Shown here piece after piece: positions 35,701 through 53,223 of a stretch of DNA of 64,000 nt. The first letter of the stretch is position 1. The number at the start of each line of letters is the position of its first letter. The stretch is from assembly GCA_965238075.1 (NCBI GenBank), contig OZ250173.1, positions 1,824,001-1,888,000 on the forward strand, written 5' to 3'. The DNA is from Candidatus Entotheonellaceae bacterium (GTDB taxonomy: Bacteria; Tectomicrobia; Entotheonellia; Entotheonellales; Entotheonellaceae). The notes under the pieces are model-generated. The model was not told where the DNA came from. It worked only from the letters and a program-made list of their open reading frames with translations, and searched no databases. A program made the position numbers and the translations under genes.

Positions 35701-37092
35701 TTGAGCGAGAAGCTATTGGCCGAGAACGAAGCGGGCCATATAGACAGGCGTCGTAATGATGACGCGGAAATAATCTGGCTCAAGGTGCTGCAAATTGTTC
35801 GCGAGCATGTGGACGATACCAAATTCAGCACTTGGTTCAAGCCACTTTACCTGCTCTCGGGCTCAAGCGGCATGTTGCGTGTGGCAGCCCCCAATAAATT
35901 CGTTCGCGACTGGGTTCTTGAGCACTACCACGGTCTGCTCGTTGACTTGTTGCAGCAGATCACTGGTATTCCCTACCAGATTTTTATCGTTGTGGGCGAA
36001 CCAAAGGCCGAGCCTACCCCGCAACCAGAGCCGGCGGCCGAGGTGGTCATGCCACCCAGCGCCAGCAGCGGATACACACAATTCAATTCCCGCTTTACCT
36101 TTGAAACGTTTGTCGTCGGCTCAAGCAATCAGTTTACGCAAGCCGCTTGCCTTGCGGTGTCGCGGCATCCGGCGGGCACGTACAATCCCCTCTTCATATA
36201 CGGCGACGTTGGCTTGGGCAAAACCCACTTGCTGCACGCCATTGGCCACTACGTTCAACAGCACCACCCGCATTTAGTGACCTGCTACGTTTCATCCGAA
36301 AAATTCCTCAATGATCTCGTCGGTGCACTAAGCCATGACAAGATGGAGGATTTCCGTAATCGTTACCGCAGAAACGATGTGATCCTCGTTGATGACGTGC
36401 AGTTTCTCATCGGCAAGGAGCGCACCCAGGAAGAATTTTTTCACACCTTCAACGTGCTGTTCAACGCCAACAAGCAGATCGTGCTGACCAGCGACAAACT
36501 GCCGAAGGCCATGACGGGACTGGAAAAACGTCTGCAGTCACGCTTCGAGTGGGGTCTGGTAACCGATTTGCAGCCGCCGGACCTGGAGACCAAGATCGCC
36601 ATCCTCAAGAGGAAGGCGGAGTACCGACAGTTCGAGTTGCCCGATGACGTGGTGTTGTATATCGCCCGTCTGATTCGCAGCGATGCGCGCAGGCTCGAGG
36701 GCGCGCTCACCACGGTGGAAGCGTTCGCCTCCATAACCGGGCAGGAGATCACCCTCGGACTAGCCAAGAGCTTGCTCGGCGACTTGGCAGAGGGAGAAGA
36801 CAAACCGATCACGATCGCTGAAATCGAGCGCGTCGTCGCGGATCACTATCACATCAAGACTGCCTTACTACGCTCAAAAAGGCGCCACAAGGACATCGCG
36901 CACGCCCGACATGTTGCCATGTACCTGACACGTCAACTGACCGGCGCATCGCTACCGCACATCGGCAAGACGTATGGCGACCGCGATCACACCTCTGTCA
37001 TACACGCCTGTAATAAAATAAAAGGGATGCTAAAGGAAAACTGGAATTTTCAGGAGGAAGTCGAGCAACTCATTCGCGTGCTCCAGAGTTAG
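35701..37092 (+). CDS. dnaA: Chromosomal replication initiator DnaA
   Basis: FTFETFVVGSSN, YNPLFIYGDVGLGKTHL, DDVQF, TQEEFFHTFN, RLQSRFEWG, RDHTSVIHA; TTG start approximate. Confidence 0.96.
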   Translation: MSEKLLAENEAGHIDRRRNDDAEIIWLKVLQIVREHVDDTKFSTWFKPLYLLSGSSGMLRVAAPNKFVRDWVLEHYHGLLVDLLQQITGIPYQIFIVVGEPKAEPTPQPEPAAEVVMPPSASSGYTQFNSRFTFETFVVGSSNQFTQAACLAVSRHPAGTYNPLFIYGDVGLGKTHLLHAIGHYVQQHHPHLVTCYVSSEKFLNDLVGALSHDKMEDFRNRYRRNDVILVDDVQFLIGKERTQEEFFHTFNVLFNANKQIVLTSDKLPKAMTGLEKRLQSRFEWGLVTDLQPPDLETKIAILKRKAEYRQFELPDDVVLYIARLIRSDARRLEGALTTVEAFASITGQEITLGLAKSLLGDLAEGEDKPITIAEIERVVADHYHIKTALLRSKRRHKDIAHARHVAMYLTRQLTGASLPHIGKTYGDRDHTSVIHACNKIKGMLKENWNFQEEVEQLIRVLQS

Positions 37093-37117
37093 GGTAAGGG
37101 GGTCACGACAAGCAGAC

Positions 37118-37798
37118 ATGTTGAAATCACGAATCAGATTTACGGGCGTGGATTACGGTCTGCTGGTGTGCATGGACTGGGAGGTGCCCCTGTCACAGCT
37201 TCTGGTCGAGGTGGAGGAACACATCCAGAAATCGCCCGCCTTTTTTGCCGATGCAAAAGTATTTCTTGAGGTAGACACGCGGCCAGTTCTACAACACGAA
37301 ATGGAACAACTCGGTGTGGTGCTCGCGCGCTACGGGCTTACATTACAGGGCGTCGTTTCCGCTGCCAGTAGGGTCGAGGGCATCAGCCGGCCCCGGCCCG
37401 CGCCGGAACAACCCAAGGTGATTACGCCGATCATTAACGAAAAAGAGGCCACGGTGGTTGAACACCGCACCGTGCGTTCCGGCGAGAAGGTTGCCTCCGA
37501 AGGCCATCTTATCATCATGGGCGATGTCAACCCTGGGGCCGAGGTCATCGCCGAAAATAACATCATCGTTTGGGGTTCCCTCAAGGGTACGGCCTACGCC
37601 GGCGTGCCCAATCACGAGGACGCCGTGATTGCCGCGCTGCATCTCTCTCCCATTCAATTGCGAATCGCCGGATACATTGCCCGGTCGCCTGATGTGCGAC
37701 CGGTGACGACGGCGGTTCCCGAGTTGGCACGCATCGACCAGAACGAAATCGTGGTCGAATCCTGGGAGCGAGGCCGAGTCTCTCAAAAAGGGGGATAG
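37118..37798 (+). CDS. minC: Septum site-determining protein MinC
   Basis: TVRSG, GDVNPGAEVIA, WGSLKG.AYAG, QLRIA. Confidence 0.92.
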   Translation: MLKSRIRFTGVDYGLLVCMDWEVPLSQLLVEVEEHIQKSPAFFADAKVFLEVDTRPVLQHEMEQLGVVLARYGLTLQGVVSAASRVEGISRPRPAPEQPKVITPIINEKEATVVEHRTVRSGEKVASEGHLIIMGDVNPGAEVIAENNIIVWGSLKGTAYAGVPNHEDAVIAALHLSPIQLRIAGYIARSPDVRPVTTAVPELARIDQNEIVVESWERGRVSQKGG

Positions 37799-37801
37799 TC
37801 T

Positions 37802-38602
37802 GTGGCGGGACAAGTTATCACCATAACTTCCGGCAAGGGAGGGGTTGGCAAAACCACTCTGAGTGCCAACGTCAGCGCAGCGCTTGCCAAGCTCGGCAAA
37901 AAGACGATCGCGGTGGATACGGATGTGGGGCTGCGTAATCTGGACATCGTCATGGGCTTGGAAAATCGCATCGTCTTCGACCTGGTCGACGTGGTGGAGG
38001 GGCGTTGCGACCTTTCAAAGGCCTGTATCCGCGACAGGCGCATCCCCTCTCTACAGTTGCTACCGGCAGCCCAAACACGTGACAAGACTGCGGTGAGCCC
38101 AAATGCTATGCGCAAGGTTTGCGACGATCTGCGGTCGCTTTGCGACTACGTCATCATTGACTCGCCAGCGGGTATCGAAAACGGTTTCGAAACAGCCACT
38201 ATCGGTGCTGATAACGTCATCATCGTCGTGACGCCGCACGTCTCATCGGTCCGTGATGCCGACCGCGTCATTGGCTTGCTGGAGTCGCGCGACAAACACG
38301 ATATTCACCTCGTGATCAACCGTCTGCAGCCGGAAATGGTGCGCCGCGGCGACATGCTCGGCATCAACGACATAATAGAAATTCTGGCAGTCGACCTCTT
38401 GGGCATCGTTCCTGAGGACGAATACATCGTTGTGTCCAGCAACCGCGGTGAGCTGGCCACCCTGAACCCCGACGAGTCGCCAGCCGGTCAGGAGTATCAG
38501 AACATCGCACGGCGCATGCAGGGTGAGGAAGTGCCGTTTATGACGATCGACGACAAGGCGAATATGTTTCAACGGCTGTTTCGTATGTTCAAAAGCAAAT
38601 AA
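37802..38602 (+). CDS. minD: Septum site-determining ATPase MinD
   Basis: SGKGGVGKTT, DVGLRNLD, DSPAGIE, SSVRDADR, C-terminal amphipathic helix. Confidence 0.97.
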   Translation: MAGQVITITSGKGGVGKTTLSANVSAALAKLGKKTIAVDTDVGLRNLDIVMGLENRIVFDLVDVVEGRCDLSKACIRDRRIPSLQLLPAAQTRDKTAVSPNAMRKVCDDLRSLCDYVIIDSPAGIENGFETATIGADNVIIVVTPHVSSVRDADRVIGLLESRDKHDIHLVINRLQPEMVRRGDMLGINDIIEILAVDLLGIVPEDEYIVVSSNRGELATLNPDESPAGQEYQNIARRMQGEEVPFMTIDDKANMFQRLFRMFKSK

Positions 38603-38640
38603 CCCGCCACCCCGGATACCTCCTGCAAAGGGGCTCCCCC

Positions 38641-38988
38641 GTGAAGAAACTCATCAGCAAAATCTTTGGATTCGGCCTGTCGGAGGACGATGCTCCCCAC
38701 CCAAGCAGACAGGCAGCGCGAGAGCGTTTGAAATTGGCTTTGACATACGACCGCGCGAGCATCGGTTACAACGCCCTGGAACGACTGCGTGACGAAATCA
38801 TCCAGGTAATTGCCAAACACCTGGACCTCGACCAGGAAGACATTACCATCCAACTCGACCGCACCATGGATCAGGACAAGCTGATCGCCAGCATTCCACT
38901 GCGCATCAACACTCGATCACACGGTTCAAAATCACCCGTCACCATGAAGGCCATGCCGCGCCCTTCCACGCGGCGGCGCCGGCGTTAG
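38641..38988 (+). CDS. minE: Cell division topological specificity factor MinE
   Basis: ARERLKLALTYDR, EIIQVIAKH, LIASIP. Confidence 0.9.
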   Translation: MKKLISKIFGFGLSEDDAPHPSRQAARERLKLALTYDRASIGYNALERLRDEIIQVIAKHLDLDQEDITIQLDRTMDQDKLIASIPLRINTRSHGSKSPVTMKAMPRPSTRRRRR

Positions 38989-39020
38989 GGTCAACCCGCC
39001 AAAATAATTTTACCCGCCCA

Positions 39021-39063
39021 TTGACACATGCCAATTTGAGCAGTATGCTCATTTGTGCACTAT
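39021..39063 (+). promoter_or_regulatory. lexA promoter with overlapping candidate operator
   Basis: TTGACA(39021)-N17-TATGCT(39044); palindrome TGAGCA-GTA-TGCTCA at 39037-39051; direct repeat ATTTGAGCAGTAT/ATTTGTGCACTAT. Confidence 0.7.
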
Positions 39064-39151
39064 CTGCCTGATTGGCAGGTATGTCTCTGCAGCATACGGG
39101 GAAAAGGAACCTCCCCAATTCCTCATGGCAATGTCAACATCGGGGCGGATT

Positions 39152-39778
39152 ATGAGACCAAAGCTCACCGCGAGACAGCAGGAAATGCTCGATTACATCG
39201 AGCGCGAAACCAGTGCAACCGGTGTTCCCCCCAGCATCCGACAAATCGGCGCGGCATTGGGCATCAGTTCCACAAACGGCGTCCGACTGCATCTGCAAGC
39301 ACTCCAGAAGAAAGGCTACATCCGTCGTAGCCAACGCACCTCTAGAGGCATCGTCAGCCTCAACCGCCTTTCAAATGCGGCTTCTCCATCCTGTTCGACA
39401 ACCGTGGATATCCCCATTTTGGGACGGGTAGCAGCAGGCATGCCCGTCATGGCCGCCGAAAACCACGAGGGCTCCCTAACCCTCGATGCAAACCTGATCA
39501 AGAACCAGGAATCGTTCGCCCTGAGGGTGAACGGCGACAGTATGATCAACGCCGGAATTCTCGACGGCGACATTGTGGTGGTGCGTTTACAACAAGGTGC
39601 GGACAACGGCGACATTGTGGTTGCGCTCATGGGCGAAGAGGCCACCGTCAAGCGTTTTTATCGAGAGAAGGACACCATTCGCCTGCAGCCGGAAAATCCC
39701 GCCATGGCACCCATTTACAGCACCGACGTAGACATCTGCGGCAAGGTCATTGCCCTCATACGGCCCCACGTGTTCTAA
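39152..39778 (+). CDS. lexA: SOS repressor LexA
   Basis: LTARQ, PPSIRQI..STNGV HTH, VAAG cleavage site, GDSM Ser, ATVKR Lys. Confidence 0.96.
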   Translation: MRPKLTARQQEMLDYIERETSATGVPPSIRQIGAALGISSTNGVRLHLQALQKKGYIRRSQRTSRGIVSLNRLSNAASPSCSTTVDIPILGRVAAGMPVMAAENHEGSLTLDANLIKNQESFALRVNGDSMINAGILDGDIVVVRLQQGADNGDIVVALMGEEATVKRFYREKDTIRLQPENPAMAPIYSTDVDICGKVIALIRPHVF

Positions 39779-39793
39779 CGCGAGATGCGGATC

Positions 39794-41269
39794 ATGAGCA
39801 AGAAAAAGCGTGCATACAACTGTCAGGCGTGCGGTTGGCAAGCGGCCAGGTGGCTCGGACACTGCCCGGATTGCGGCGGTTGGGACACCTTTGTCGAAAC
39901 GCTGCAGATGTCGACCCCAGCGACGCGCCAGACGCAGCCAGGGACAACCCAGTCACCGCTGCCGCTAACGGAAATCGTCCACGACGACGCGGAGCGTTTG
40001 CTGACGGGCATTGGGGAATTCGACCGCGCGCTCGGCGGAGGTATCGTACGCGGATCTCTCGTGCTCATCGGCGGCGACCCGGGCATCGGCAAGTCGACCC
40101 TGCTTTTGCAAGCCGCCCGCGGTCTGAGCCGGGCTCACAAGGGCAACAGTTCCGCGGTCCTCTACGTCTCGGGCGAAGAATCGGCCAGCCAACTCCGCAT
40201 GCACGCCGAGCGGCTCGGCTTGCAGAATCAGAACATCCACATTCTGACCGAAACTTCCGTGACGCATATCTGCGCTCAGGCTGAAGCGCTGCGACCGGAC
40301 GTTCTGATTATCGACTCCATCCAGACCGTGTTCACGGAAAATTCGACCTCGGCACCAGGCAGCGTCAATCAAGTGCGCGAGAGCACCGCCCAACTGATGA
40401 ACCTCGCCAAGACACATGACCTGCCGATTTTAATCATCGGACACGTTACCAAAGAGGGCACCATTGCCGGCCCTCGGGTCATGGAGCACATGGTGGACAC
40501 CGTGCTCTACTTCGAGGGTGAACGGCACCACGTCTACCGCGTGTTGCGGGCGGTCAAGAACCGCTTCGGCCCGACGCACGAAATTGGCGTGTTCGAAATG
40601 CAATCAGCGGGCCTCATGGAAGTGGAAAGTCCGTCGGAACTCTTTCTGGCCGAACGGCCGTCACAAGCCAGCGGTTCGGTGGTGGTGGCGAGTCTGGAGG
40701 GCACCCGCCCGCTCCTCGTCGAGCTGCAGGCCCTGGGCAGTCCGAATGTCTTCGGCAACCCGCGGCGCGTTGCCAACGGCGTGGATTACCAGCGGCTCCT
40801 GCTCCTGCTGGCGGTTATGGAGAAGCGCCTGGGACTTCCCCTGCAAATAAACGATGTGTACGTCAATGTCGTTGGCGGCCTCAGCTTGAACGAGCCAGCC
40901 ATCGACCTCGGAGTCGTAGTAGCGGTTGCGTCGAGCTTGCAGGACGCGGTAATCGATGCCGATCTGGTCGTCCTGGGCGAGATTGGCTTAACAGGAGAAG
41001 TACGCGCCGTGGGGCATGTGGAAGCCCGCTTGCGGGAAGCGGCCAAACTCGGCTTTCGCCGCTGCCTGATTCCGCAGGCGAATGTTCAAGCCGCTTCGAT
41101 GGTGGCTGGAATTGAAAGCATCGGGATTCGGACGGTCTCGGAGGCACTGCAAATAGTACTGCCGCCGGAGCCATCTTTCAGCAGTCTGAAGGAACGCGAT
41201 AGACACGTGGTTGCTTCGGCACCATTTCGGAGAAGGGGAGGAAAAAAACATGACGAAACATACGCCTGA
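39794..41269 (+). CDS. radA: DNA repair protein RadA/Sms
   Basis: CQACG..CPDC zinc finger, [14 protein letters not shown], Lon-like C-terminus. Confidence 0.97.
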
Positions 41270-42368
41270 TCGGCAAAGCGAGAAACAACGTGTCCTGAGC
41301 CTGGCTTTCAGCCAGATCGAAAAACAGTTCGGCAAGGGTGCCATCATGCGCCTCGGCGAGAGCCAAGCCCTGGATATTCCGGTCATTCCCACCGGTTCCC
41401 TGGCCTTGGACATTGCCTTGGGGGTTGGCGGCCTGCCACGCGGCCGTATCATTGAGATCTACGGGCCCGAAGCCTCCGGCAAAACCACTCTGGCCCTGCA
41501 CGTCGTAGCGTCAGCACAGCGCAGCGGTGGCGAGGCGGCGTTCATCGACGCCGAACACGCCCTTGATCCCTCCTACGCGGGCAAAGTGGGTGTCAACACG
41601 GACAATTTACTCATCTCACAGCCCGACAGTGGTGAGCAGGCATTGGAGATTGCCGACGTCCTGGTCCGAAGTGGGGCTTTGGATGTCGTCGTTATCGACT
41701 CAGTGGCAGCCCTCGTGCCCCAAGCCGAGATCGACGGCGATATGGGCGAACCCCAGATGGGCCTGCAAGCGCGTCTGATGTCGCAGGCCATGCGCAAGCT
41801 CACCGGCATCATCCACAAAACGAAGACCTGCATGATCTTCGTCAACCAGATCCGCCAAAAGATTGGTGTTTTCTTTGGCAGCCCGGAGACGACGACCGGC
41901 GGCAATGCCCTGAAGTTCTATGCTTCCGTCCGTCTCGATATCCGCCGCATCGACTCGATCAAATCCGGCCAAGAAGTCCTCGGAAACCGTACTCGGGTCA
42001 AGATCGTCAAAAACAAGGTGGCCCCGCCCTTCCGGCAGGCCGAGTTTGACGTGCTGTACGGTACGGGAATTTGCGCGATCGGAGAATTACTTGACTTGGC
42101 GGTACAGCGTGACATGGTGCAGAAAAGCGGTTCCTGGTTCTCCTACGCCGGCGAGCGTATTGGCCAGGGGAGAGAGAACGCCAAGGGTTTCCTGGAGGAA
42201 CACGCCGATGTGGCCACGGCCATCGAAGCGCGGATACGTGCAGCCTACGACATTCCGCAGGTAGCCAGCGAAAAGCTTGCCGCTGCCGCCGAGGCCGCCA
42301 GCACCGGAGAGGATCTGTATGAGCCTGCTTCCGTGGAAGAGGACGGCGATCGACTGGAAATCAGTTGA
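41250..42368 (+). CDS. recA: Recombinase RecA
   Basis: [49 protein letters not shown]. Confidence 0.99.
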
Positions 42369-42423
42369 ATGCGCCCCAGGGCGCTGACGATAGGCAATCT
42401 CGATGGGAAGGAGCAGCGCGGTC

Positions 42424-42909
42424 ATGCGCGAAATGTTTGCCGGTGAATACGCATGCAAACTGGATGACAAGGGTCGCTTTTCCGTCCCGACGTCCCTCCG
42501 GGAGCCGTTCAGTCTTTCGGAAAGTAGCGATGCGAAGCGGGCAATGCTGGTCAAATCGCAACAGGAACGATGCCTTTGGCTTCTTCCCGTACCGCACTGG
42601 CGCGCGCTGCTTGAGTTCCAGCAGGAGCGGCTGAGCGAGCGTGAAAGCCGGCTCTTCATGCACCACGTGGTGTATGACGTGGTCGAGGTTGAAATGGACC
42701 GCGCCAATCGTCTTCTGGTACCCCGCAGGCTGCGAGAGCACATTGGCGCCAATGACAACGTCGTGCTCGTCGGTATGTACGATCACCTGGAGGTGTGGGG
42801 TAGTCAGGCTTGGTCTTCTCACCTCGCCGCCTTGGAAGAGGAACATGAAACGACCCTGAGCGACGTGCTCCGCATGCCCAGTTTCAAGCCAGCCCTTTCA
42901 GGCGCGTAA
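42424..42909 (+). CDS. MraZ-family (double SpoVT/AbrB) regulator, outside the dcw cluster
   Basis: MFAGEY..KLDDKGRFSVP..LRE; second repeat MDRANRLLVP..LRE..VVLVGMYDHLEVW. Confidence 0.85.
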   Translation: MREMFAGEYACKLDDKGRFSVPTSLREPFSLSESSDAKRAMLVKSQQERCLWLLPVPHWRALLEFQQERLSERESRLFMHHVVYDVVEVEMDRANRLLVPRRLREHIGANDNVVLVGMYDHLEVWGSQAWSSHLAALEEEHETTLSDVLRMPSFKPALSGA

Positions 42910-42971
42910 CCTGGCGGAGCGCGGCGATTTGCTCCAACGATTCCAGACCCCGGGACAAAAGAAAGGCTCGC

Positions 42972-44147
42972 ATGCTTGACTTGATGGAGGTGAATCAGCA
43001 AATCACCAAGATGGCTACTGAGAGGCATCTCGTTGCCGATGACATGGCCAAACGGCTCGCCTTGGCCGTGGAACGCCTGCATCTGGAATCCGCCCGCTGG
43101 CAGGAATTCGTTGACAAACTTGCGATGAGCAAGACCTCCTGGTTGGTTGCCACCATTCACGAGCCTCTCAACCGCACCTACGACCTGCCGCCGCGCCCCG
43201 AGACGGTCACCGTCGTGGCCGCTGACGGTTCGCAAATCATGCCGAGCCATCACGAGGTGATACCGGCTTTTCTGCTCAATATCGCCACGGTCGTCCTACA
43301 CTACGGCAACGGTGGAGGAGCAGCGTTTACCAGCACGCCAAGCCTGTTTTATCGTGACGAGGACCTGTACCTGGATTACGGCGGCGAGCGCGTGCAGGTA
43401 ACCGGTGACCTGCTGGGCATGCGCCGGACGCTGATGGAATTCGGCAGCCTTATCGAACAGGCGGTCGCCGCCCGCAAGGGTGGCGATGTTGTTTGTGCGC
43501 TTAGTGACGGCAGTCTGATTCTCTGGCAGCTCGAGGGGCGACCGCCGGATTACCAGGAATCCATGCTGACGGATTATCTGGCATGTCTTGATCAGGGCAA
43601 CCATCAAGACGTTCCGATCATTGGCTACATCAGTCGGCCACGCAGCCGCGACGTTGTGAACGCCTTGCGGGTTGGGCTTTGCCCCGAAGACGCCCCGAAC
43701 TACGATCGCTGCCCGTACGAACAGGATGAGCGACCGCCGTGTGCGCAGATCGAGGGGCTGACGGATCGCCGCCTTTTCGCCAATCTCCTGAAGGCGGGTG
43801 AGCGCTCCCAGGTCTTTGGCAGCACGTCCCGAATCCTCAGCAAGTACGGGGTGCACCGCATCGGCTTTTTCTATCTTCACGTGGGGTCGGAGATTGTGCG
43901 TATCGAGTTGCCGCAATGGGTCGGCGCAAACGCCGCGCTGCTTGATCTGGTCCATGCCGTCGCCTATGATCAGGCCCAGAAAGGCATGGGCTATCCGGTT
44001 GCCTTGGCTGAGGCCCATCAGCAAGCCGTGGTGCGGGGCGCCGAACGCGATCTATTTTACGACATGGTAACCGCCGTGTTCCGGCAACGTGGCGCACCCA
44101 TGGCCGTGTCACCCAAAAACCTTCGCAAACGCAGAATGACGGTGTAG
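42972..44147 (+). CDS. nurA: DNA double-strand break repair nuclease NurA
   Basis: VAADGSQ, LSDGSL, GYISRP, RIELPQW, GYPVALAEAHQQA. Confidence 0.9.
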   Translation: MLDLMEVNQQITKMATERHLVADDMAKRLALAVERLHLESARWQEFVDKLAMSKTSWLVATIHEPLNRTYDLPPRPETVTVVAADGSQIMPSHHEVIPAFLLNIATVVLHYGNGGGAAFTSTPSLFYRDEDLYLDYGGERVQVTGDLLGMRRTLMEFGSLIEQAVAARKGGDVVCALSDGSLILWQLEGRPPDYQESMLTDYLACLDQGNHQDVPIIGYISRPRSRDVVNALRVGLCPEDAPNYDRCPYEQDERPPCAQIEGLTDRRLFANLLKAGERSQVFGSTSRILSKYGVHRIGFFYLHVGSEIVRIELPQWVGANAALLDLVHAVAYDQAQKGMGYPVALAEAHQQAVVRGAERDLFYDMVTAVFRQRGAPMAVSPKNLRKRRMTV

Positions 44148-44149
44148 CC

Positions 44150-44725
44150 ATGCAAGACGGCGAAATTGGTGAGGTGATCGGCAGCAGCAATACCGAATTC
44201 ATTGCCGAAAGCGTTTTGCTGCATAATTCCCCGCCCTTTGGCACCTTCATCAAGGTGCAGTCGCGCGAGACGATCTACGCTGCCGTGTTCAACTCCTATA
44301 CCCACAGCCTGGAGCCCAACCGCCTGGCCATTGCCTACCACCGCTCGGAGCAGGAACTGCGCGACGAGCAGCCGCAGATTTTCGAGCTCCTGAAGACAAA
44401 ATTCGAGGCGGTCATCATCGGGTACGAGTCCGAAGGCACTGTCCGCTACCATCTACCGCCGCAACCGCCCCGCATCCACAGTTTCGTCTATCCGTGTCGC
44501 CCCTTGGAAGTTCGCCGCCTGACCTCGCAATTCCACTTCCTGCGTTCGCTGATGAGCGTCGAGAAAACCCCGCGCGACGAGCTGATCGCCGCCGCTATCC
44601 GCAGCGCCTACGCGGAACACAAGGGCGAGCGGTCGTTCCTGGTCAAGGTCGGCAAGGAATTGATCAAAATCATCGGCGACGATTACGAGTTGCTTTCCTC
44701 TATCTTACGCAGAATCCAGGATTGA
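44150..44725 (+). CDS. Stand-alone HAS-barrel protein associated with NurA/HerA
   Basis: IGEVI..S.TEFIAE, PPFGTFIK, LPPQPPRIH, DDYELL; between nurA and herA. Confidence 0.8.
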   Translation: MQDGEIGEVIGSSNTEFIAESVLLHNSPPFGTFIKVQSRETIYAAVFNSYTHSLEPNRLAIAYHRSEQELRDEQPQIFELLKTKFEAVIIGYESEGTVRYHLPPQPPRIHSFVYPCRPLEVRRLTSQFHFLRSLMSVEKTPRDELIAAAIRSAYAEHKGERSFLVKVGKELIKIIGDDYELLSSILRRIQD

Positions 44726-44747
44726 CCACTGGGTTAAAGGCCAACAA

Positions 44748-46406
44748 ATGGATAACGTGCAGAAGGGCAGACGGCGCGTCGGCGTGATCGTCAACGGCTC
44801 CCTGATTAACGGTTTGGAGATGAAGCTGGACGAATGGTACTCCGTGGAGGACATTCGCGCCGGCCGGTTCGTGGTCATCGAAGGCGAGAAGAGCTGCTTC
44901 TTTTGCATGGTCACCGACGTGCGTCTCGACACCACCAACCCCCAGGTGCTGGCCGACCCGCCCGACGAGGCGGAAGAGCTCATGCGCCAGGTGCTGCACG
45001 GCACGACGACCTACGGCACCGTCTGCCTGCGCCCCCTCCTGATGACGGAGAAGGACGACGTTGTCGGCGACAGACCGGGGGAACCCCACCTCGTCAAAAC
45101 CATCCCCATTCACTTTTCCGTAGTCGGCGAGGCCGAAGAGGAAGACGTCAACCACATCTTTGGCCACGAGGGCAACCCCCGCTATTTTCACATCGGCCAA
45201 CCTCTGGACATGGATACGCCGGTCTGCATCGACTTGGAAAGCTTTATCGAGCGCAGCAACGGGATTTTCGGCAAGACGGGCACCGGCAAGACCTTCCTGA
45301 CCCGCCTGATGCTGGCGGGCCTGATTCATAAAGACCGTGCAGTCAACCTCATCTTCGACATGCACAGCGAATACGGCTGGCAGGCGACGCAGGAATCCGG
45401 CAGCGGCGGGCGGCAGGGATTCGTCAAGGGCCTGAAGCAACTCTTCGGCAGCAAGGTAGCCATCTTTACCATCGATCCCGAGTCGGCCCGGCGGCGCGGC
45501 GTGCAGAGCGATTTTGTGGTCAACATCCCTTACAGCCAGATCACCGTGGAAGACATCGCCTCTCTGTCAGACGAGCTCAACCTGCACCCAACCGCGGTGG
45601 AATCGGCGTACTTGATATGGAACAAGCACGGGCGCGAGTGGCTATCCACCCTGCTAAGCCAGGAGCCTGAGCAGATCAAGGACTTTGCCGACAACGTTGG
45701 CGCACACCCGGAATCCATTTCGGCCCTCCACCGCAAGCTCAAACGCCTGGAAAAATTCGACTTTCTGCAAAAGCAGGTGCACGAGGACGCCGTCTACAAA
45801 ATCATGGAGTTCCTTGGCAAGGGCATGCACATCGTCCTGGAATTCGGCCAACAAAGCAGCTTCCTGTGCTACATGCTGGTCGCCAACATCCTGACCCGCC
45901 GCATCCACGACCTCTACGTCAGGAAAACCGAGCAATACCTCGCCACCCACCAGCCGCAGGACAAGCCGAAGCAGCTCATCATCACCATCGAAGAGGCGCA
46001 CAAGTTTCTCAACCCGGTTGCCGCCCGACAGACCATCTTCGGTACCATTGCGCGTGAAATGCGCAAGTATTTCGTCTCCCTGCTCATTGTCGATCAGCGG
46101 CCCTCCAGTATCGATGATGAAATCCTGTCGCAGGTGGGCACCCGCATCACCGCGCTGTTGAACGACGAGAAGGACATTGGCGCCGTGCTCACCGGCGTCA
46201 GCAACGCCAGTTGGCTACGCGGCGTCCTGGCAAGCCTGGATTCCAAGCAACAAGCCCTGCTCATGGGACACGCCGTGCCGATGCCGGTCGTCATCCGCAC
46301 GCGAGACTACAATCCCGCCTTTTACAGCGCGCTGGGGTACGTGGAGGGCGAGGACCTGACCCGCAAAGCCGAGTCCAACATCGCGGATCTGTTCGGCGAC
46401 CGGTAG
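44748..46406 (+). CDS. herA: HerA/FtsK-like ATPase (DUF87)
   Basis: HAS-like N-terminus, GKTGTGKT, FDMHSEYG, IEEAHKF, AREMRKY, DQRPS. Confidence 0.92.
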   Translation: MDNVQKGRRRVGVIVNGSLINGLEMKLDEWYSVEDIRAGRFVVIEGEKSCFFCMVTDVRLDTTNPQVLADPPDEAEELMRQVLHGTTTYGTVCLRPLLMTEKDDVVGDRPGEPHLVKTIPIHFSVVGEAEEEDVNHIFGHEGNPRYFHIGQPLDMDTPVCIDLESFIERSNGIFGKTGTGKTFLTRLMLAGLIHKDRAVNLIFDMHSEYGWQATQESGSGGRQGFVKGLKQLFGSKVAIFTIDPESARRRGVQSDFVVNIPYSQITVEDIASLSDELNLHPTAVESAYLIWNKHGREWLSTLLSQEPEQIKDFADNVGAHPESISALHRKLKRLEKFDFLQKQVHEDAVYKIMEFLGKGMHIVLEFGQQSSFLCYMLVANILTRRIHDLYVRKTEQYLATHQPQDKPKQLIITIEEAHKFLNPVAARQTIFGTIAREMRKYFVSLLIVDQRPSSIDDEILSQVGTRITALLNDEKDIGAVLTGVSNASWLRGVLASLDSKQQALLMGHAVPMPVVIRTRDYNPAFYSALGYVEGEDLTRKAESNIADLFGDR

Positions 46407-46435
46407 CGCCGTACCGGAGAGGATGGCATTTCGAT

Positions 46436-47668
46436 ATGCTCCACCTGCTGCACCTCGCCGACATCCATTTTGGCATGGAAAACCACGGCCGCCTCGACCC
46501 CGCCAGCGGGCTGAACCGCCGCCTGCTCGACTTCACCCGCTCGGTGCACACGGCGATTGATTACGCCCTCGACCACGACGTCCATCTCGCCATTTTCGCC
46601 GGCGATATCTACAAACACCGCGACCCCGACCCCTCCTGGCAACGCGCTTTCGCCGGATGCGTGCGACGCCTGGCCGAGGCCGAGATTCCCGTGGTCATCC
46701 TGGTCGGCAATCACGACCAGCCGAACACCTTCGGCAAAGCCCACGCCGTGGAAATCTTCGATACCCTTGGACTTCCCCGCGTGACGGTCATTAACAAGCC
46801 GAAACTGCACACGATCGCGACAGCCGCCGGCCCCGTGCAGGTCGCGGGCTTTCCCTATATGACGCGCAGTTTCATGCTGTCGCGCGAACAGTACAAAGCG
46901 CTCTCGATCGCCGACGCTCACCGGTTGATGGTCAAGCAGGCCGAAGAAATCCTGCGTTCCCTGGCGGCGCAACTCGACCCCTCGCTGCCGGCTGTGCTCA
47001 CCCTCCACGGCAGCGTGTCCAACGCCATCCTCAGCTCCGAACAAAGCATCATGATGATAGGGCACGATCCGATCATACCGCTCAGTATCCTGACCAATCC
47101 CGCCTGGGATTACGTCGCCCTGGGGCATATCCATCGCCATCAGGACTTACACCACGGGGCGCAGCCGCCGGTGGTGTATGCGGGCAGCATCGAGCGCATC
47201 GATTTCGGCGAGGAAAAGGAAGACAAAGGGTTCGTGTGGGCGCAGGTCGAAAAGGGGCATACCACGTTCACCTTCATTCCCGTGCCGGCGCGGCGCTTCG
47301 TCACCCTGCGCCTGGATGCTCGAAACGGCGACCCGGTTCAGTTACTGGAGGAAGGGCTGGCCACACACGATATCGACGACGCCATCGTGCGGGTTATCGT
47401 CACCATACCTGCCGAACACACCGCTCCCTTCGACGAGCGCCGGATGCGCGAGCGCCTTCGGTCCGCCTATCTCGTCGCCGGCATTGTCAGGGATGAGGTG
47501 CGCGGCCCGGCGCGCACGCGCGATTCCGGTCTGACCGAAACGCTGACACCGCTGCAGGCCATGGAGCGCTACCTGCAAAGCCGCCCGGAATACGCCGACC
47601 GCCAGCAGGCTCTGCTGGAACGCACGCAACGGTTGCTCCAGGAAATGCAGGAGGAACTCCTGGCATGA
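46436..47668 (+). CDS. sbcD: SbcD/Mre11 nuclease
   Basis: ADIHFG, AGDIY, GNHD, ALGHIH, YAGSIERIDFGE. Confidence 0.95.
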   Translation: MLHLLHLADIHFGMENHGRLDPASGLNRRLLDFTRSVHTAIDYALDHDVHLAIFAGDIYKHRDPDPSWQRAFAGCVRRLAEAEIPVVILVGNHDQPNTFGKAHAVEIFDTLGLPRVTVINKPKLHTIATAAGPVQVAGFPYMTRSFMLSREQYKALSIADAHRLMVKQAEEILRSLAAQLDPSLPAVLTLHGSVSNAILSSEQSIMMIGHDPIIPLSILTNPAWDYVALGHIHRHQDLHHGAQPPVVYAGSIERIDFGEEKEDKGFVWAQVEKGHTTFTFIPVPARRFVTLRLDARNGDPVQLLEEGLATHDIDDAIVRVIVTIPAEHTAPFDERRMRERLRSAYLVAGIVRDEVRGPARTRDSGLTETLTPLQAMERYLQSRPEYADRQQALLERTQRLLQEMQEELLA

Positions 47669-50600
47669 TTCCGCTCAGCCTGCGACTGCGGAATTTCATG
47701 AGCTATGGCGAGCATGTGCCACCCCTCAATTTCACCCCCATCACTACTGCTTGCCTCACGGGTGACAACGGACACGGCAAATCGGCCCTGCTGGACGCCA
47801 TCACCTGGGCGCTCTGGGGCCAGACGCGCGCCAAAAACCTCGACGACATCGTGCGCCTCGGCCAGGAGGAATGCGAGGTCGAGTTCGTCTTCGACCTCGA
47901 GGGCGACCGCTACCGCGTGCTGCGCAAGCGCAGTCTGCGGACCCGCAGCGGCCTCTCAGCTCTCGAACTGCACGGCTTCGACCCGGCGGCACAAAGCTAC
48001 CGCGCCCTGAGCGGCAACTCCATCCGCGAGACCGAAGCCAAAATCGCGCAAATCCTGCACATGAACTACGACACGTTCGTCAACTCGGTGTTCATCCTGC
48101 AAGGCCGGGCCGATGAATTCACCACCCGCCGTCCCGGCGAGCGCAAACGTATCCTGTCGGAAATACTGGGCTTGTCCGTTTTCGATGAGCTCCAAACACG
48201 CGCCCGAATTCATCACGGCAGCCTGGACCAGGAAGCCAAGACGATCGCCGAACATCTGCACGAGTTGCAACAACAGGTCGCGCGCAAAGCCGACCTTGCC
48301 GCCGCGGTGGATACCCACCGGAAAACACTAACCAGCTTGCAGGCCGAACTACACGAAGCCCAGAAAAACCTGACGCACCTGCAGCAACGGCAAAACGCTC
48401 TGGAATTGCAACAGCAGCGGCTCCAGGACGTGTCCCGACGCTTGCAGCAACTCCGTCAGGAACAGGGCGATCTGGCTCCGCAATTGGCCCTTCACCGTCA
48501 GCATCTCGCCGATTATGAAACCCTGCTGAAACAGGAACAAGCCATCACCACCGCCTATCAAGCATTGCAACAACTCCGCGACCAGGAACGTGTCTACAGC
48601 CAACAGGCGGACGAATACGCGGCGCTAAACCAGAAGCGCACAACCCTGCAACATGCCGTCGCATCGGCCCGCCAGCGCCTCGACATCCAACTGCAGAACG
48701 CCGAGCAGCGGGGCACGGAGATCGACGCGAAACGCCGGGATTGCGAGGTCATCGTGCTAGAGGAGCCGTGCATCGTGCAGGCATACGAGGCATTGCAAGC
48801 GGCCCGCCGACGCGATGGTGAAATGGCCCAGACACTGCAACAACGATACGTCCGGGAGCAGGAGAAGGGCCAGATTGAATTGAGCATCCAGCAGAAACGG
48901 CACGCACTGGAGCTGGAACAACGCTCCCTCCTGGACAGGCAGAAGGAATACCAGCGGAAGGAAGCCACGCTGCCGACCTGGCAGGAACAGACGGAGCAAT
49001 TGCGCCAGCAACTGGGCAACGTCGAACAGCAGGCACTGCAACTTGAGGGAGTGCGTGCAGCCGGCGCGACGCTGACATTTCAACTCGACCACGCCCTGCC
49101 GCAGAAGCACGATGCGTTGCGTACGGAAATCAGGGACTACGAGGGCAAACGTCTGCTGATTGAGAGTGCCGAGGCGCACTGCCCTTTGTGCGAAAACGCC
49201 CTGACCGATCAGGAACGGCACCGCGTGATGCGGAAGTTGAAGCTGGAAACCGAGCAGCGCGAGCAGCGCATCCGCGACATGCAGGACGAACGTAATCAGT
49301 TACAGGCGCGGCAGCAGGAACTGCATCTGACGTACAAGCAGTTAGAAGAGCAAATCAAGCAGGGCAGGACGCTCACACAACAGCTTGCCGCCGCGCAGGC
49401 AGGCCTCGAAGAGGCCACACGCGCCCGCGACCACTGCGCCGCGGTCTTGCAGGCGTTGCAAGAGATTGACGCTCAACTCGCGGCGGGCGCATACGCCCGC
49501 GAGGACTTGGCACATCTGGAACGGCTGAACATCGAGCTCGAACAACTGGCCTATGACCCCGAAGCATACGAGGCGTTGCGCGAAAAGCTGGCCCGACTCG
49601 CCGAAGCCGAGACCCGGCACCTGCAGTTGCAGCAGGCAAAGGCCGACCTGCTAACCTTAAACACCCAGCGCCAGGAGATAACCCAACAACAGGCCGTGCT
49701 GCGAGAGACCCTGACCTCAAACCGGTTCGCCCTCAGCGAGCAGCAGGAACTACAGGAAATAGCCGAGCGCCTCCAGCGCCTGGATTATCAGCCCGAACAG
49801 CACAACCTTCTGCGCCGCAAGCTGCAAGAACAGCAGGGTGTCGAACGCCCGTTCGCGCAGCTCGAAACCGCCCGCCAACACCTGAGCGAAACGCACGCCG
49901 CCCTCCAAGACCTCGAAGCTCGTCAGGCGCGTACCGATATAGAAATCGGGGCACGGGAAGAAGACCGCCAACGATTCGAGCACGAGGTGCAATCCCTCGA
50001 CGCGGTGCGCGCTGACGCCGACACCGTCGAGGACCTTGTGCGCGCGCTGCGGGAACGGGAAGGAGAGACCCGCCTCGCCTTGGGTCGTAGCCAGTCGCAA
50101 TATGAGGTGTGTTTACAGCAGGAGGCCGAGCTACAGGCACAACAACAGCAGCGGCAACGCGTGGTATCCGAACGGCAGCTCTACGACGACCTCACCCGCA
50201 TGTTCGGGAAGAACGGCATCCAAGCCATCATGATCGAGAACGCCATACCCGAGTTGGAAGAAGAGGCCAACCGCATCCTTTCCCGGGTCAGCGATAACGC
50301 CATGCACGTGACGCTCGAAACGCAGCGCGACACCCGCACTGGTGGCGTTGCCGAAACGCTCGACATCAAGATCAGCGACGACCTGGGCACCCGCAACTAC
50401 GAACTGTTCTCCGGCGGCGAGGCGTTTCGCATCAATTTCGCCCTGCGTATCGCACTGTCCCGCATGCTGGCCCGGCGCGCCGGCGCCCGCCTCCGCACCC
50501 TGGTGATCGACGAGGGCTTTGGCACCCAGGACACCCAGGGCCTCGAACGTTTGGTCGAGGTGATCAAGGCCATCCAGGACGACTTCGCCAAGATCATCAT

Positions 50601-50694
50601 CATTACCCATCTACGCGAATTGAAGAACGCCTTCGAGACCCATATCGAGGTCACCAAGCACCCCGTGCTCGGCTCTTCCTTCGAGGTGGTTTGA
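47665..50694 (+). CDS. sbcC: SbcC/Rad50 SMC-like ATPase
   Basis: GDNGHGKS, coiled coil with CPLC hook, FSGGE, LVIDEGFGTQD, ITH. Confidence 0.96.
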   Translation: MIPLSLRLRNFMSYGEHVPPLNFTPITTACLTGDNGHGKSALLDAITWALWGQTRAKNLDDIVRLGQEECEVEFVFDLEGDRYRVLRKRSLRTRSGLSALELHGFDPAAQSYRALSGNSIRETEAKIAQILHMNYDTFVNSVFILQGRADEFTTRRPGERKRILSEILGLSVFDELQTRARIHHGSLDQEAKTIAEHLHELQQQVARKADLAAAVDTHRKTLTSLQAELHEAQKNLTHLQQRQNALELQQQRLQDVSRRLQQLRQEQGDLAPQLALHRQHLADYETLLKQEQAITTAYQALQQLRDQERVYSQQADEYAALNQKRTTLQHAVASARQRLDIQLQNAEQRGTEIDAKRRDCEVIVLEEPCIVQAYEALQAARRRDGEMAQTLQQRYVREQEKGQIELSIQQKRHALELEQRSLLDRQKEYQRKEATLPTWQEQTEQLRQQLGNVEQQALQLEGVRAAGATLTFQLDHALPQKHDALRTEIRDYEGKRLLIESAEAHCPLCENALTDQERHRVMRKLKLETEQREQRIRDMQDERNQLQARQQELHLTYKQLEEQIKQGRTLTQQLAAAQAGLEEATRARDHCAAVLQALQEIDAQLAAGAYAREDLAHLERLNIELEQLAYDPEAYEALREKLARLAEAETRHLQLQQAKADLLTLNTQRQEITQQQAVLRETLTSNRFALSEQQELQEIAERLQRLDYQPEQHNLLRRKLQEQQGVERPFAQLETARQHLSETHAALQDLEARQARTDIEIGAREEDRQRFEHEVQSLDAVRADADTVEDLVRALREREGETRLALGRSQSQYEVCLQQEAELQAQQQQRQRVVSERQLYDDLTRMFGKNGIQAIMIENAIPELEEEANRILSRVSDNAMHVTLETQRDTRTGGVAETLDIKISDDLGTRNYELFSGGEAFRINFALRIALSRMLARRAGARLRTLVIDEGFGTQDTQGLERLVEVIKAIQDDFAKIIIITHLRELKNAFETHIEVTKHPVLGSSFEVV

Positions 50695-50756
50695 GCAACT
50701 ACGCTGCGGGCTTTTTTCAACTCCGCTGAATCTCTTGAATGGGAACTCGATTCTCT

Positions 50757-51512
50757 ATGGTTAGCGGCAAAGTCTATCTCGTCGGCGCGGGACCGGGCGC
50801 CGCAGACCTGCTGACCGTGCGCGCCGTCAACGTGCTGGCGCGAGCCGAGATTGTCTTTCACGACGCACTGATCAACAAGGAAACGCTGTCGCATTGCGCC
50901 GCCGGGTGCGTCCTGGTTCCGGTCGGCACGCGTGGTGGTTTTCGTGTTCCCAACCGGCAAGAGCGCATCCACGAGCTTCTGGCCGAGGCAGCCGGGCGGT
51001 ACGGCACGATCGTCCGTCTCAAGGGCGGTGACCCGTGCGTTTTCGGCCGCGGCGGCGAAGAAATGGAGTTTCTCACCGCGTCCGGCATACCGTGGGAGGT
51101 CGTCCCTGGCATCAGCGCCGGCGTTGGTGGACTCTCGCTGCTCGGCTTTCCCGTTACGCATCGGGACGTGTCGTCATCGGTGACGCTGCTGACCGGCAGC
51201 CGCACGACCACCGGCATGTTTGACGAACTACCGCTGCCGGCACCTCTCACGCCCTCCCAAACCCTGGTGTTCTACATGTCGTTCCAGCATGTCGGCAACA
51301 TTGCGCACACGCTGATGACGCGCGGCATGCCGCCGGAGACGCCGGCTCTGTGCGTTTCCTGGCTGTCGTATCCGCATCAGGCGCTGCTCACAGCGCCGCT
51401 GTCGCAGATCGGCGATGCGGTAGCTGCCTCCGAGTTGACACCGCCGTCCCTGCTGGTCGTCGGCGACGTTGTGGCGTTCTGGCAACGCCTGCAAGCTGGC
51501 AGAGACGTGTGA
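50757..51512 (+). CDS. cobA: Uroporphyrinogen-III C-methyltransferase
   Basis: VYLVGAGPG..DLLT, RLKGGDP.VFGRGGEE, VPGISA, PVTHR. Confidence 0.9.
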   Translation: MVSGKVYLVGAGPGAADLLTVRAVNVLARAEIVFHDALINKETLSHCAAGCVLVPVGTRGGFRVPNRQERIHELLAEAAGRYGTIVRLKGGDPCVFGRGGEEMEFLTASGIPWEVVPGISAGVGGLSLLGFPVTHRDVSSSVTLLTGSRTTTGMFDELPLPAPLTPSQTLVFYMSFQHVGNIAHTLMTRGMPPETPALCVSWLSYPHQALLTAPLSQIGDAVAASELTPPSLLVVGDVVAFWQRLQAGRDV

Positions 51513-51520
51513 ACCATTTC

Positions 51521-53197
51521 ATGGATCAGCAATACGTCAGCGCCATCTTTGACGAAATCGCCAATCTGCTGGAACTGCGGCGCGACGATCCGTTTCGTAT
51601 CCGCGCCTATCGACGGGCCGCGCAAGCGATCCTGTCCGTCGACGAGAGCTTGCAGGCAATCGCTCGGCGCGGTGGGCTTGAAGACATTTCGGGCATTGGC
51701 AAGACACTCGCCAGCGAAATCGACGAACTCCTCGACACCGGCCGACTGCGTTATCACGACCACCTGAAAAGTACGGTGCCCGAGGGCCTGCCGGGCCTGC
51801 TGCGCCTCCCGAGTCTGACGATCCAGCAGGCACGCACCTTGTGGCAGCAGCATCGGATCACCTCTCTGAAGCAACTTGCCCAGGCTTACCGAGCCGACCA
51901 GACGCCCCTGGACGCAGCCACGCTTGCCGTCTTGGGTAGGGACCTTGCAGCCTGGGAGCGGGGCGAGAATCGCATGTTGCTCGGCACCGCCTGCCCGCGC
52001 GCCGAAGCCCTGACGCATAACCTCGCAAAGCTCTCGACCGTTCAACAGATTGAAATTGCTGGTAGTATCCGCCGCGGCGCGATCCTGGTAGGCGATATCA
52101 ATATCGTCATGGGCTCCGAGGACCCGGAGGGCCTGATTCGATATTGCCGTCGTCAGCCGGAAGTAACCCAGATTCTTGACAGCGGAGCGACCTCAACGGC
52201 GATGCGCATCTCCGAGGGTCTGCGCGTCTCGCTCGTCGCCGTGCCGCCGACGGAATTTGGCGGCGCCCTGCTGCTGGGGACCGGTTCCGACGCCCACTTG
52301 GCCGCGCTGCAGCAGTGGGCTCAACTTCACGGCTGGTGCCTCAACGAGCGCGCCGCGGCAGAAGAAGCGGACCTGTACGAACTGCTGGGATTGCCGTTTA
52401 TCGCTCCTGAATTGCGCGAGGGCCGCGGGGAGATTGAGGCGGCGGAAGCGGACAATCTGCCGCAACTCGTGTCGCAGCAAGATGTGCTTGGCGATTTTCG
52501 CGTCGGCAGCCATTGGGGAAACGGTGCCAACGGCCTGGACCAGATTGCCCAGGCCGCTCGGAAGATGGGCTACCAATACGTGGGCATCTGCGATGCCGCC
52601 TACTCAGCCGCCACAGGCCGCGGGCTCACCCCTGGCGAACTCGAGCAGCAGATCGCTTCGATCGAGTTGATGAACGCCGCCTTGCCGGACGATTTTCGCC
52701 TGCTGGCCGGCGTGGAAGTCGACATTTCACCCGACGGCGGCCTCCAGACCCCTGCGGAACTGCTACAGACGTGCGATGTGGTGGTCGCCGCCGCACGCAC
52801 TGGCCTCAAAGAACCGCGCCGTCAACTGACCCGCCGTTTGTGCAAGGCCATGGAGAATCCACTCGTCCACATTCTGGCACCCCCGCCCGGACGCCCTCCG
52901 GGTGACCCGGAGATGCCGCCCATCGACACGGAAGCGATCCTGGAAACCGCGGCTGCCACCAATACTTGTCTGGAAATCAATAGCCACCCCCTACGCCCTG
53001 GTCTGCCGGATGTCCACGTACGCACAGCCAGGGACCGCGGCGTGATGCTCGCCCTTGGCTCCGGCGCGCAGCACATACGCGAGATGCAATCCATGGCCCT
53101 CGGCGTGACGACGGCGCGCCGCGGCTGGGCCGAACCGCGGCATCTGCTCAATACCCGGCCACTCCAGGCAGTTCTGCAGTTTCTGAAAAAGGCGTGA
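51521..53197 (+). CDS. polX: PolX-PHP fusion with degenerate active sites
   Basis: PFRIRAYRRAA, GIGK HhH, AGSIRR, TGS.AH, IAPELRE, ARRGW; catalytic Asp and PHP His/Asp ligands substituted. Confidence 0.88.
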   Translation: MDQQYVSAIFDEIANLLELRRDDPFRIRAYRRAAQAILSVDESLQAIARRGGLEDISGIGKTLASEIDELLDTGRLRYHDHLKSTVPEGLPGLLRLPSLTIQQARTLWQQHRITSLKQLAQAYRADQTPLDAATLAVLGRDLAAWERGENRMLLGTACPRAEALTHNLAKLSTVQQIEIAGSIRRGAILVGDINIVMGSEDPEGLIRYCRRQPEVTQILDSGATSTAMRISEGLRVSLVAVPPTEFGGALLLGTGSDAHLAALQQWAQLHGWCLNERAAAEEADLYELLGLPFIAPELREGRGEIEAAEADNLPQLVSQQDVLGDFRVGSHWGNGANGLDQIAQAARKMGYQYVGICDAAYSAATGRGLTPGELEQQIASIELMNAALPDDFRLLAGVEVDISPDGGLQTPAELLQTCDVVVAAARTGLKEPRRQLTRRLCKAMENPLVHILAPPPGRPPGDPEMPPIDTEAILETAAATNTCLEINSHPLRPGLPDVHVRTARDRGVMLALGSGAQHIREMQSMALGVTTARRGWAEPRHLLNTRPLQAVLQFLKKA

Positions 53198-53223
53198 GGA
53201 AACGGGGAGGGGGAGTTGCGCTT

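Follow-up and report, generated by a model that had tools for sequence, protein, structure and literature searches.

The window analyzed in this study is a 64,000-nucleotide stretch (G000:C1:1824001-1888000) of the genome of a sponge-associated Tectimicrobiota bacterium, which is assembled as one 3.35-Mb contig. Its closest public relatives are metagenome-assembled genomes labelled Candidatus Entotheonella sp. or Tectimicrobiota. Between positions 35701 and 53197 of the window, 15 genes follow one another on the + strand in the order dnaA-minC-minD-minE-lexA-radA-recA-mraZ-like-nurA-orfX-herA-sbcD-sbcC-cobA-polX. An earlier note, made from the letters of the sequence, named these genes and proposed that they form two linked transcription units, dnaA-minCDE and a LexA-led repair operon. 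All of the genes belong to known families; the arrangement is new, and a limited search of open-access text found no description of it.

Genes of the cluster and their spacing

Every gene identity is backed by Pfam or NCBIfam models, in agreement with the names given in the earlier note. The cluster opens with a full-length dnaA (DnaA1; 35701..37092, +), which carries the DnaA_N (PF11638), Bac_DnaA (PF00308), and Bac_DnaA_C (PF08299) domains and scores 526 bits with TIGR00362 (cut-off 343.9). Its start is ambiguous, 35701 or 35716, both being TTG. The adjacent genes minC (37118..37798, +; MinC_N and MinC_C; TIGR01222, 111 bits), minD (37802..38602, +; TIGR01968, 367.9 bits), and minE (38641..38988, +; PF03776; TIGR01215, 54.7 bits) follow. 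All three scores exceed the cut-offs of their models, and the cluster minC is the sole MinC_C match of the genome.

The next three genes are lexA, radA, and recA. lexA (39152..39778, +; alternative start 39125) encodes an N-terminal winged-helix DNA-binding domain and an S24 peptidase domain (PF01726, PF00717; TIGR00498, 216.8 bits, cut-off 110.95). The product of radA/sms (39785..41269, +; TIGR00416, 611.7 bits) has a zinc ribbon, a RecA-like ATPase, and a Lon-like C-terminal domain. recA (41250..42368, +; TIGR02012, 559 bits) starts 20 nt inside the end of radA, and its start is preceded by a strong Shine-Dalgarno sequence.

The remaining genes begin with an mraZ paralogue (42424..42909, +; alternative starts 42403 and 42433), in which two PF02381 stretches were found (95.5 bits). 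It is followed by nurA, of the 5'-3' nuclease family (42972..44147, +; PF09376, 126 bits), and by orfX (44150..44725, +), whose 191-aa product is similar to the HAS-barrel and helices that form the N-terminal part of HerA. herA, of the hexameric translocase family (44748..46406, +; DUF87 PF01935, 123.8 bits; HAS-barrel PF09378), sbcD/mre11 (46436..47668, +; TIGR00619, 126 bits), and sbcC/rad50 (47665..50694, +; TIGR00618; Rad50 zinc hook PF04423) come next. The last two genes are a cobA/cysG-type uroporphyrinogen-III C-methyltransferase gene (50739..51512, +; NCBIfam) and polX (51509..53197, +; PolX core and PHP domain), with which the cluster ends. A + strand open reading frame (ORF) at 53194-53835, behind polX, was rejected as a gene, its place being occupied by recR on the - strand (53224-53820).

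The gaps were computed with the most likely start codons, and their pattern agrees with the earlier description. In dnaA-minCDE they measure 25 bp (dnaA-minC), 3 bp (minC-minD), and 38 bp (minD-minE). The one long spacer, of 136-163 bp, separates minE from lexA. Thereafter, lexA and radA are 6 bp apart, radA and recA overlap by 20 bp, and the mraZ-like gene lies 34-64 bp behind recA. The subsequent gaps are 62 bp (mraZ-like-nurA), 2 bp (nurA-orfX), 22 bp (orfX-herA), and 29 bp (herA-sbcD); sbcD and sbcC overlap by 4 bp, sbcC-cobA is 44 bp, and cobA and polX either overlap by 4 bp or are 8 bp apart. Rfam models found no RNA family within the cluster. By a crude gene call, which itself split the cluster, six of the 861 co-directional runs of the genome contain at least 15 genes; the run is thus long, not unique. 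Coding strands within the window tend to hold more C than G.

Conservation within the family and comparison beyond it

Conservation was assessed in loci of NurA relatives, taken with 10 kb on each side, and in further regions from the same phylum, onto which the window proteins were mapped. The family sample, with NurA 62-99% identical, comprised 12 genomes from five genera. The order dnaA-minCDE-lexA-radA-recA-(mraZ-like)-...-nurA-orfX-herA stands on one contig in 11 of them, spread over the five genera, and it is the same in five other genomes of the window's genus. Misassembly, which the earlier note wished to see excluded, is unlikely, given the single contig, the same order in relatives, and the single contigs of other sequencing runs that span 34800-54700.

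The arrangement is unusual outside the family, as the earlier note had supposed. In a domain-adjacency sample of 201 genomes, all 12 family genomes having MinC place DnaA_C some 0.5 kb before MinC_C, and none of the 18 non-family genomes with both positions listed does so. Beyond these 18 checkable genomes, six have MinC with no DnaA position listed and two have no DnaA_C match. The dnaA-minC gap is 18-28 bp in every family genome. Outside the family, lexA adjoins recA once, in G033, with no radA between them. radA stands without any of these neighbours in the two other families of the class, and in the sister family f2 the genes dnaA, minC, lexA, radA, and recA of genome G015 (95% complete) are on separate contigs or at least 42 kb apart.

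The flanks of the cluster do not share its conservation. The block from dnaA to polX is kept in G006 and G007, two family genomes; the right flank persists in G006 but not in G007, and in the 100-116 kb of sequence surrounding the cluster in these two genomes none of the 31 ORFs left of dnaA is syntenic. Since the block is kept while the left flank is lost, it forms a synteny island within the family.

The content of the block varies between genera. cobA occupies the locus only in the window's genus and was not found there in G006 or G007, the latter having an MrfA-like helicase at the position of cobA. In larger relatives, the mraZ-like gene and nurA are separated by genes for a second HerA-like ATPase (650 aa) and a RusA resolvase, and sbcC and polX by a gene for an MrfA-like DEAD/MZB helicase (L133:13158-15676 and L134:3446-6229, respectively). 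A search of the window's genome with a relative's query did not find the second HerA-like ATPase. The window's genus appears to have lost this ATPase, RusA, and the MrfA-like helicase, matching its smaller genomes (3.4-4.3 Mb vs 4.0-9.7 Mb in other genera). In genus g5, unrelated genes stand in place of sbcDC behind herA. In G008 (62% complete), a degraded second NurA with internal stops lies beside the intact nurA (G008:C104:12480-13586; loci L017-L020).

The twelfth genome, G012, has the cluster in two halves. Its contig C43 carries dnaA-minC-minD-(RRXRR/HNH gene)-minE, with other genes after minE; its contig C278 carries a RarA/MgsA gene, lexA, radA, recA, a second herA, rusA, nurA, orfX, and herA, and no mraZ-like gene. 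Both junctions are far from contig ends, so that the split does not hinge on how good the bin is (89% complete, 7% contamination). The RRXRR/HNH endonuclease gene between minD and minE is at L175:10041-11366.

Gene order may be preserved with no joint function. The cluster would then be a historical accident, maintained near the origin by gene dosage and a low rearrangement rate and carried on by inertia in one family. The confinement of the arrangement to one family, the scattering of the genes in G015, the content that differs between genera, and a right flank of well-known origin-side genes (recR-ybaB-dnaX ... gyrA-gyrB-recF-dnaN) are consistent with such an explanation. However, at equal divergence (NurA 62-69% identical) the left flank is lost, and G007 keeps neither flank. 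Moreover, the very short conserved gaps of dnaA-minC, lexA-radA, and nurA-orfX point to co-transcription within units, and recA appears to depend on the only operator-like site of the cluster, described below. We regard inertia as a possible but rather unlikely explanation.

Proposed transcription units and their predicted control

The best sigma-70-like match in the region is the lexA promoter (39021..39049, +; TTGACA-17-TATGCT, 10/12), located in the long spacer behind minE, where the earlier note had placed a promoter. Its -35 hexamer and the bases that follow are kept in all 12 family loci, aligned by eye. A 14-bp near-palindrome with 5-nt arms and a 4-nt spacer (39046..39059) overlaps the -10 hexamer, and such an overlap is seen in 12 of 12 family loci; we read it as the predicted LexA operator. 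The LexA protein would be capable of self-cleavage, as the Ala-Ala-Gly cleavage motif and the Ser- and Lys-bearing motifs are conserved in an alignment with E. coli LexA chains. One or two extra genes with the LexA DNA-binding domain occur off the cluster in G002, of the window's genus, and in G007, G010, G011, and G013, four of the larger relatives; the window genome has one LexA DNA-binding-domain gene in all.

The palindrome pattern occurs at six exact places in the 3.35-Mb genome. At one of these, the identical 14-mer recurs between a radical-SAM gene and a divergently transcribed HlyD-family gene (L156:1655-1668; G000:C1:2428155). A site no more than about 100 bp upstream of the radical-SAM orthologue is present in five of five genomes of the window's genus, in the one of g6, and in one of two of g3; in G007 it is about 470 bp from the gene, and in G006 none was found. 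The radical-SAM gene is likely a second member of the LexA regulon. A pattern search allowing at most one mismatch found no other such site in the intergenic parts of the cluster, in the window genome or in relatives. Hence LexA would control recA only through the lexA promoter, and anything beyond recA only by read-through.

Upstream of dnaA, the neighbouring gene (33838-35121) is on the - strand, and the dnaA unit therefore needs a promoter of its own. A sigma-70-like candidate (35182..35210, +; TGGACA-17-TAGAGT, 9/12) lies within the 580-bp divergent intergenic region. A contig from an RNA run starts at 35229, a weak hint at most because contigs cannot show transcript starts.

The borders between units were sought in the window genome and in relatives. 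As the earlier note had observed, the intergenic gaps of the cluster contain no + strand terminator-like site; 21 such sites were called in all, against 18.9 ± 4.4 in shuffled sequences. In loci of other genera (L133, L137, L135, and L027), a GC-rich hairpin with a 9-12 bp stem follows the recA stop, and a spacer of 100-200 bp then leads to the mraZ-like gene. In G006 (L026), a long perfect terminator-like hairpin with T runs stands between minE and the lexA promoter. A promoter and terminator scan of a relative was uninformative, having missed the conserved lexA promoter itself. Contigs from the RNA runs X17 and X18, which belong to one study and are 95-99% like the window, bridge dnaA through minE and the spacer behind it (35229-39136) as well as lexA-radA, recA-mraZ-like, mraZ-like-nurA, and nurA-orfX-herA. 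They indicate presence in an RNA library, not single transcripts, and their depths were not used to rank genes; the uncovered stretches (the 3' half of radA, sbcDC, and polX) carry no information.

We consider it probable that the cluster is not one operon but a grouping, specific to the family and on the origin side, of three or more neighbouring transcription units with the same direction, squeezed together in a small genome. The arrangement is real, family-specific, and unusual, its genes are known ones, and it is best explained by the compaction of neighbouring operons in a reduced genome. The first unit would be dnaA-minC-minD-minE, in which full-length DnaA is co-transcribed with the Min system; we infer this co-transcription from the short dnaA-minC gap kept throughout the family. 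The second unit would be lexA-radA-recA, transcribed from the conserved sigma-70-type promoter whose -10 hexamer the predicted operator overlaps. Upon DNA damage, RecA filaments would promote the cleavage of LexA, and lexA, radA, and recA would be de-repressed jointly, recA having no box of its own.

The third unit is proposed to begin with the MraZ paralogue, which may have a regulatory role, to continue with an archaeal-type resection set (NurA, the HerA-N-terminal-like protein, HerA, SbcD/Mre11, and SbcC/Rad50), and to end with cobA as a passenger and PolX. In the larger relatives it would start after its own spacer, behind the hairpin that follows recA, and would include the extra HerA-like ATPase, RusA, and the MrfA-like helicase. 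In the window only about 55 bp of the recA-mraZ spacer are left, and the third unit may thus be damage-inducible through read-through from the second.

The gene at the head of the third unit is not the MraZ of the dcw cluster. Its product scores 86.8 bits with TIGR00242, below the cut-off of 98.35, and the canonical mraZ, 28% identical to it, is at G000:C1:2798398-2798829, heading rsmH-ftsL-ftsI; the cluster copy is thus a paralogue. A search with the paralogue gave 303 relatives at E <= 1e-5, and the best 120 listed are 60-100% identical and annotated as MraZ where named. In other phyla, the paralogue was looked for next to NurA with a hidden Markov model of its family, and no ORF in 72 loci (L028-L099, nurA with 10 kb on either side) matched. 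Just upstream of the mraZ-like gene, 18-nt tandem direct repeats with a spacing of 18 occur at L133:12588-12658 (four copies) and L137:16338-16372 (two copies). These repeats, a possible operator of the MraZ paralogue, are limited to genus g3 and are not kept in g1, g2, g5, or g6.

The resection genes encode the NurA, HerA, SbcD/Mre11, and SbcC/Rad50 families side by side (42972-50694). The earlier label of a HAS-type protein for OrfX is right: the Pfam HAS-barrel match is sub-threshold (E 0.008), but the 10 best Foldseek matches of its AlphaFold model (pLDDT 88.9) are all HerA-type chains (HerA, HerA-NurA, and TdpAB complexes), whose N-terminal part it matches. The sequence of OrfX is well conserved, and its gene keeps the place between nurA and herA both in the family and in loci labelled Clostridia. 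Three loci of distant lineage (Clostridia-labelled L028, L030, and L036) have nurA-orfX-herA-sbcD(-sbcC), two more have nurA-orfX, and the other 67 of the 79 loci have nurA alone at the thresholds used.

The occurrence of nurA-orfX-herA-sbcD in the Clostridia-labelled loci suggests transfer, and nurA-orfX-herA-sbcDC could belong to anti-phage defence, as an island of the HerA-nuclease type, and not to repair. The fold matches of OrfX include solved HerA complexes with a defence role, and PADLOC models match HerA (best 100 bits, C-terminal part only) and, partly, SbcC (LmuB). Against this, NurA, OrfX, SbcD, the MraZ paralogue, and RusA had no PADLOC match. The neighbours are recA, radA, lexA, and polX, the chromosomal place beside the origin region is conserved, and the borders have no integrase or tRNA. 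The NCBIfam scores of HerA do not discriminate between the two functions, as both the anti-phage model (83 bits) and the repair model (79 bits) are far under their cut-offs of 800. With PADLOC matches confined to parts of HerA and an SMC head, the repair reading was kept, and a defence island is highly improbable.

The earlier note suggested that dnaA-minCDE and one LexA-led operon, some 14 kb long, may form a cell-cycle and DNA-damage checkpoint module. In such a module, damage signalling, initiation, and division-site choice would be co-controlled from this locus. The separation of dnaA-minCDE from what follows stands. The single long operon does not fit the one operator-like site, the hairpins and spacers behind recA, or the variable content. 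In favour of a joint module, no gap after lexA exceeds 64 bp, no intergenic terminator-like site was called in the window genome, the order is kept across five genera where the left flank is not, and a contig of an RNA run extends from dnaA into the spacer behind minE as far as 39136. Yet G012 has the two halves on separate contigs with the junctions well inside both, and G006 has a T-run hairpin between minE and the lexA promoter. Other genera have a hairpin and spacer after recA, g5 lacks sbcDC behind herA, cobA is an unrelated passenger, and no LexA-box-like site was found near dnaA or minCDE. Such a checkpoint is very unlikely.

Several observations weigh against our own reading of at least three units. 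With no terminator-like site between the 15 genes, a long read-through transcript is possible in the window genome, and the hairpins behind recA in other genera are devoid of T runs and escaped the terminator scan. The RNA-run contigs reveal neither starts nor ends of transcripts, and the runs X6 and X8, from the other study, probably contain DNA, given flat-depth contigs of 16-27 kb across convergent genes. As for control, the LexA operator is a predicted one, and a scan allowing one mismatch leaves room for a degenerate box before recA or nurA. No conserved operator for the MraZ paralogue was found at the family loci, and the paralogue is not indispensable to the third unit, as it is missing from the G012 locus.

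Origin side and comparison with known systems

To the right of polX, a converging run on the - strand (53224-64000) contains recR, ybaB, dnaX, the SRP RNA (55856-56124), five tRNAs, a tadA-like deaminase gene, gyrA, gyrB, and recF. dnaN, also on the - strand, follows just past the right end of the window. The cluster and this run together make about 29 kb almost wholly of DNA replication and repair genes. Full-length dnaA, about 27 kb from dnaN, points toward the dnaN locus.

The earlier note pointed out that dnaA normally precedes dnaN, and the idea of a dnaA displaced from dnaN needs correcting. The family has two DnaA homologues: the full-length copy stands before minCDE, and a second, short one is directly upstream of dnaN (L158:2690-4025, which is G000:C1:1888690-1890025, the region including the spacer). 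Its 400-aa ORF matches the DnaA model at positions 107-437 only (364.7 bits), corresponding to domains III-IV, and is 37% identical to the cluster DnaA. The DNA-reading motif of domain IV is altered in this copy, whereas it is intact in the cluster DnaA. G006 shows the same dnaA2-dnaN-recF-gyrB order, and other family genomes have a second frame bearing DnaA_C, of 335-350 aa.

The spacer between dnaA2 and dnaN contains four DnaA-box-like sites in about 90 bp. The densest DnaA-box cluster of the genome (three sites in 600 bp, at most one mismatch) is upstream of dnaN; one such site is found before the cluster dnaA. The dnaA2-dnaN spacer is likely the oriC region, and the cluster dnaA is not located beside oriC/dnaN. 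If oriC is there, the cluster would point toward the origin, head-on to the replication fork. The cumulative GC skew fails to return to zero, the given strand having 12,833 more G than C; its detrended minimum is broad (1.90-1.955 Mb), and gene-strand bias is weak genome-wide. The minimum is compatible with an origin near dnaN; neither skew nor strand bias fixes the origin.

With a second DnaA at dnaN, it must be asked which of the two fires the origin. A cell cycle with two DnaA proteins can be imagined, in which full-length DnaA and MinCDE are made from one transcript, the short DnaA near dnaN and the origin acts as a local regulator, lexA-radA-recA is a self-contained damage switch, and the MraZ paralogue controls the resection operon as MraZ does dcw. 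The locus would then hard-wire initiation, division, and repair. We put this forward as a speculation that is quite unlikely to hold in full.

What is new at the locus is a dnaA-minCDE unit, a lexA-radA-recA unit whose two SOS master proteins have one operator-like site between them, and a MraZ paralogue heading the NurA/HerA/SbcCD genes, the three units being kept together in one little-studied, uncultivated family. If they are regulated as we infer, the cluster would be a compact natural case of SOS control reduced to one promoter, would give the poorly understood MraZ family a second, non-division job, and would include a bacterial counterpart of the archaeal resection operon, supplemented by a HerA-like adaptor.

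In thermophilic archaea, herA, mre11, rad50, and nurA form an operon, as described in the accessible parts of PMC2288612 and PMC3326311. The same four families lie side by side in the window, where the expected role is likewise 5'-3' resection of breaks before loading of the recombinase. The window differs in its bacterial host, in the order nurA-orfX-herA-sbcD-sbcC, and in the stand-alone HerA-N-terminal-like protein between nurA and herA. Here a MraZ paralogue heads the unit, directly behind lexA-radA-recA, and the larger relatives add the second HerA-like ATPase, RusA, and the MrfA-like helicase. Bacterial homologues of the archaeal pair are the HerA-NurA proteins of Deinococcus and Thermus, linked to recombinational repair in the accessible parts of PMC4663267 and PMC5448004. 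The solved HerA of D. radiodurans is among the fold matches of OrfX. To our knowledge, the Deinococcus and Thermus proteins are encoded as two-gene pairs with no adjacent sbcDC, recA, or lexA.

The LexA box of Bacillus and Staphylococcus is a 5-4-5 palindrome, CGAAC-N4-GTTCG, in the accessible parts of PMC3091678 and PMC9578287. The palindrome in the window resembles it in having 5-nt arms and a 4-nt spacer at the promoter of lexA itself, and the self-cleavage motifs of LexA are intact; the arm sequence differs from all of the boxes quoted in those parts of the two papers. Unlike in other LexA-autoregulated SOS systems, lexA, radA, and recA share one promoter region here, and recA is without a box. 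Possible parallels are a tandem lexA-recA-recX of Xanthomonas and the LexA box of Fibrobacter, whose arms may be similar in sequence.

Like the mraZ of dcw, the paralogue is a two-domain MraZ-family gene at the front of a long co-directional cluster, but it heads repair genes, not division genes. The Min genes of E. coli form an operon of minC, minD, and minE, in order and tightly spaced; order and spacing are the same in the window, where dnaA precedes them by 25 bp. Finally, dnaA-dnaN-recF-gyrB is the textbook arrangement at the origin side. A DnaA homologue likewise stands directly upstream of dnaN-recF-gyrB-gyrA here, but this dnaN-side copy is without the N-terminal domains, and the full-length dnaA heads the Min genes about 27 kb away.

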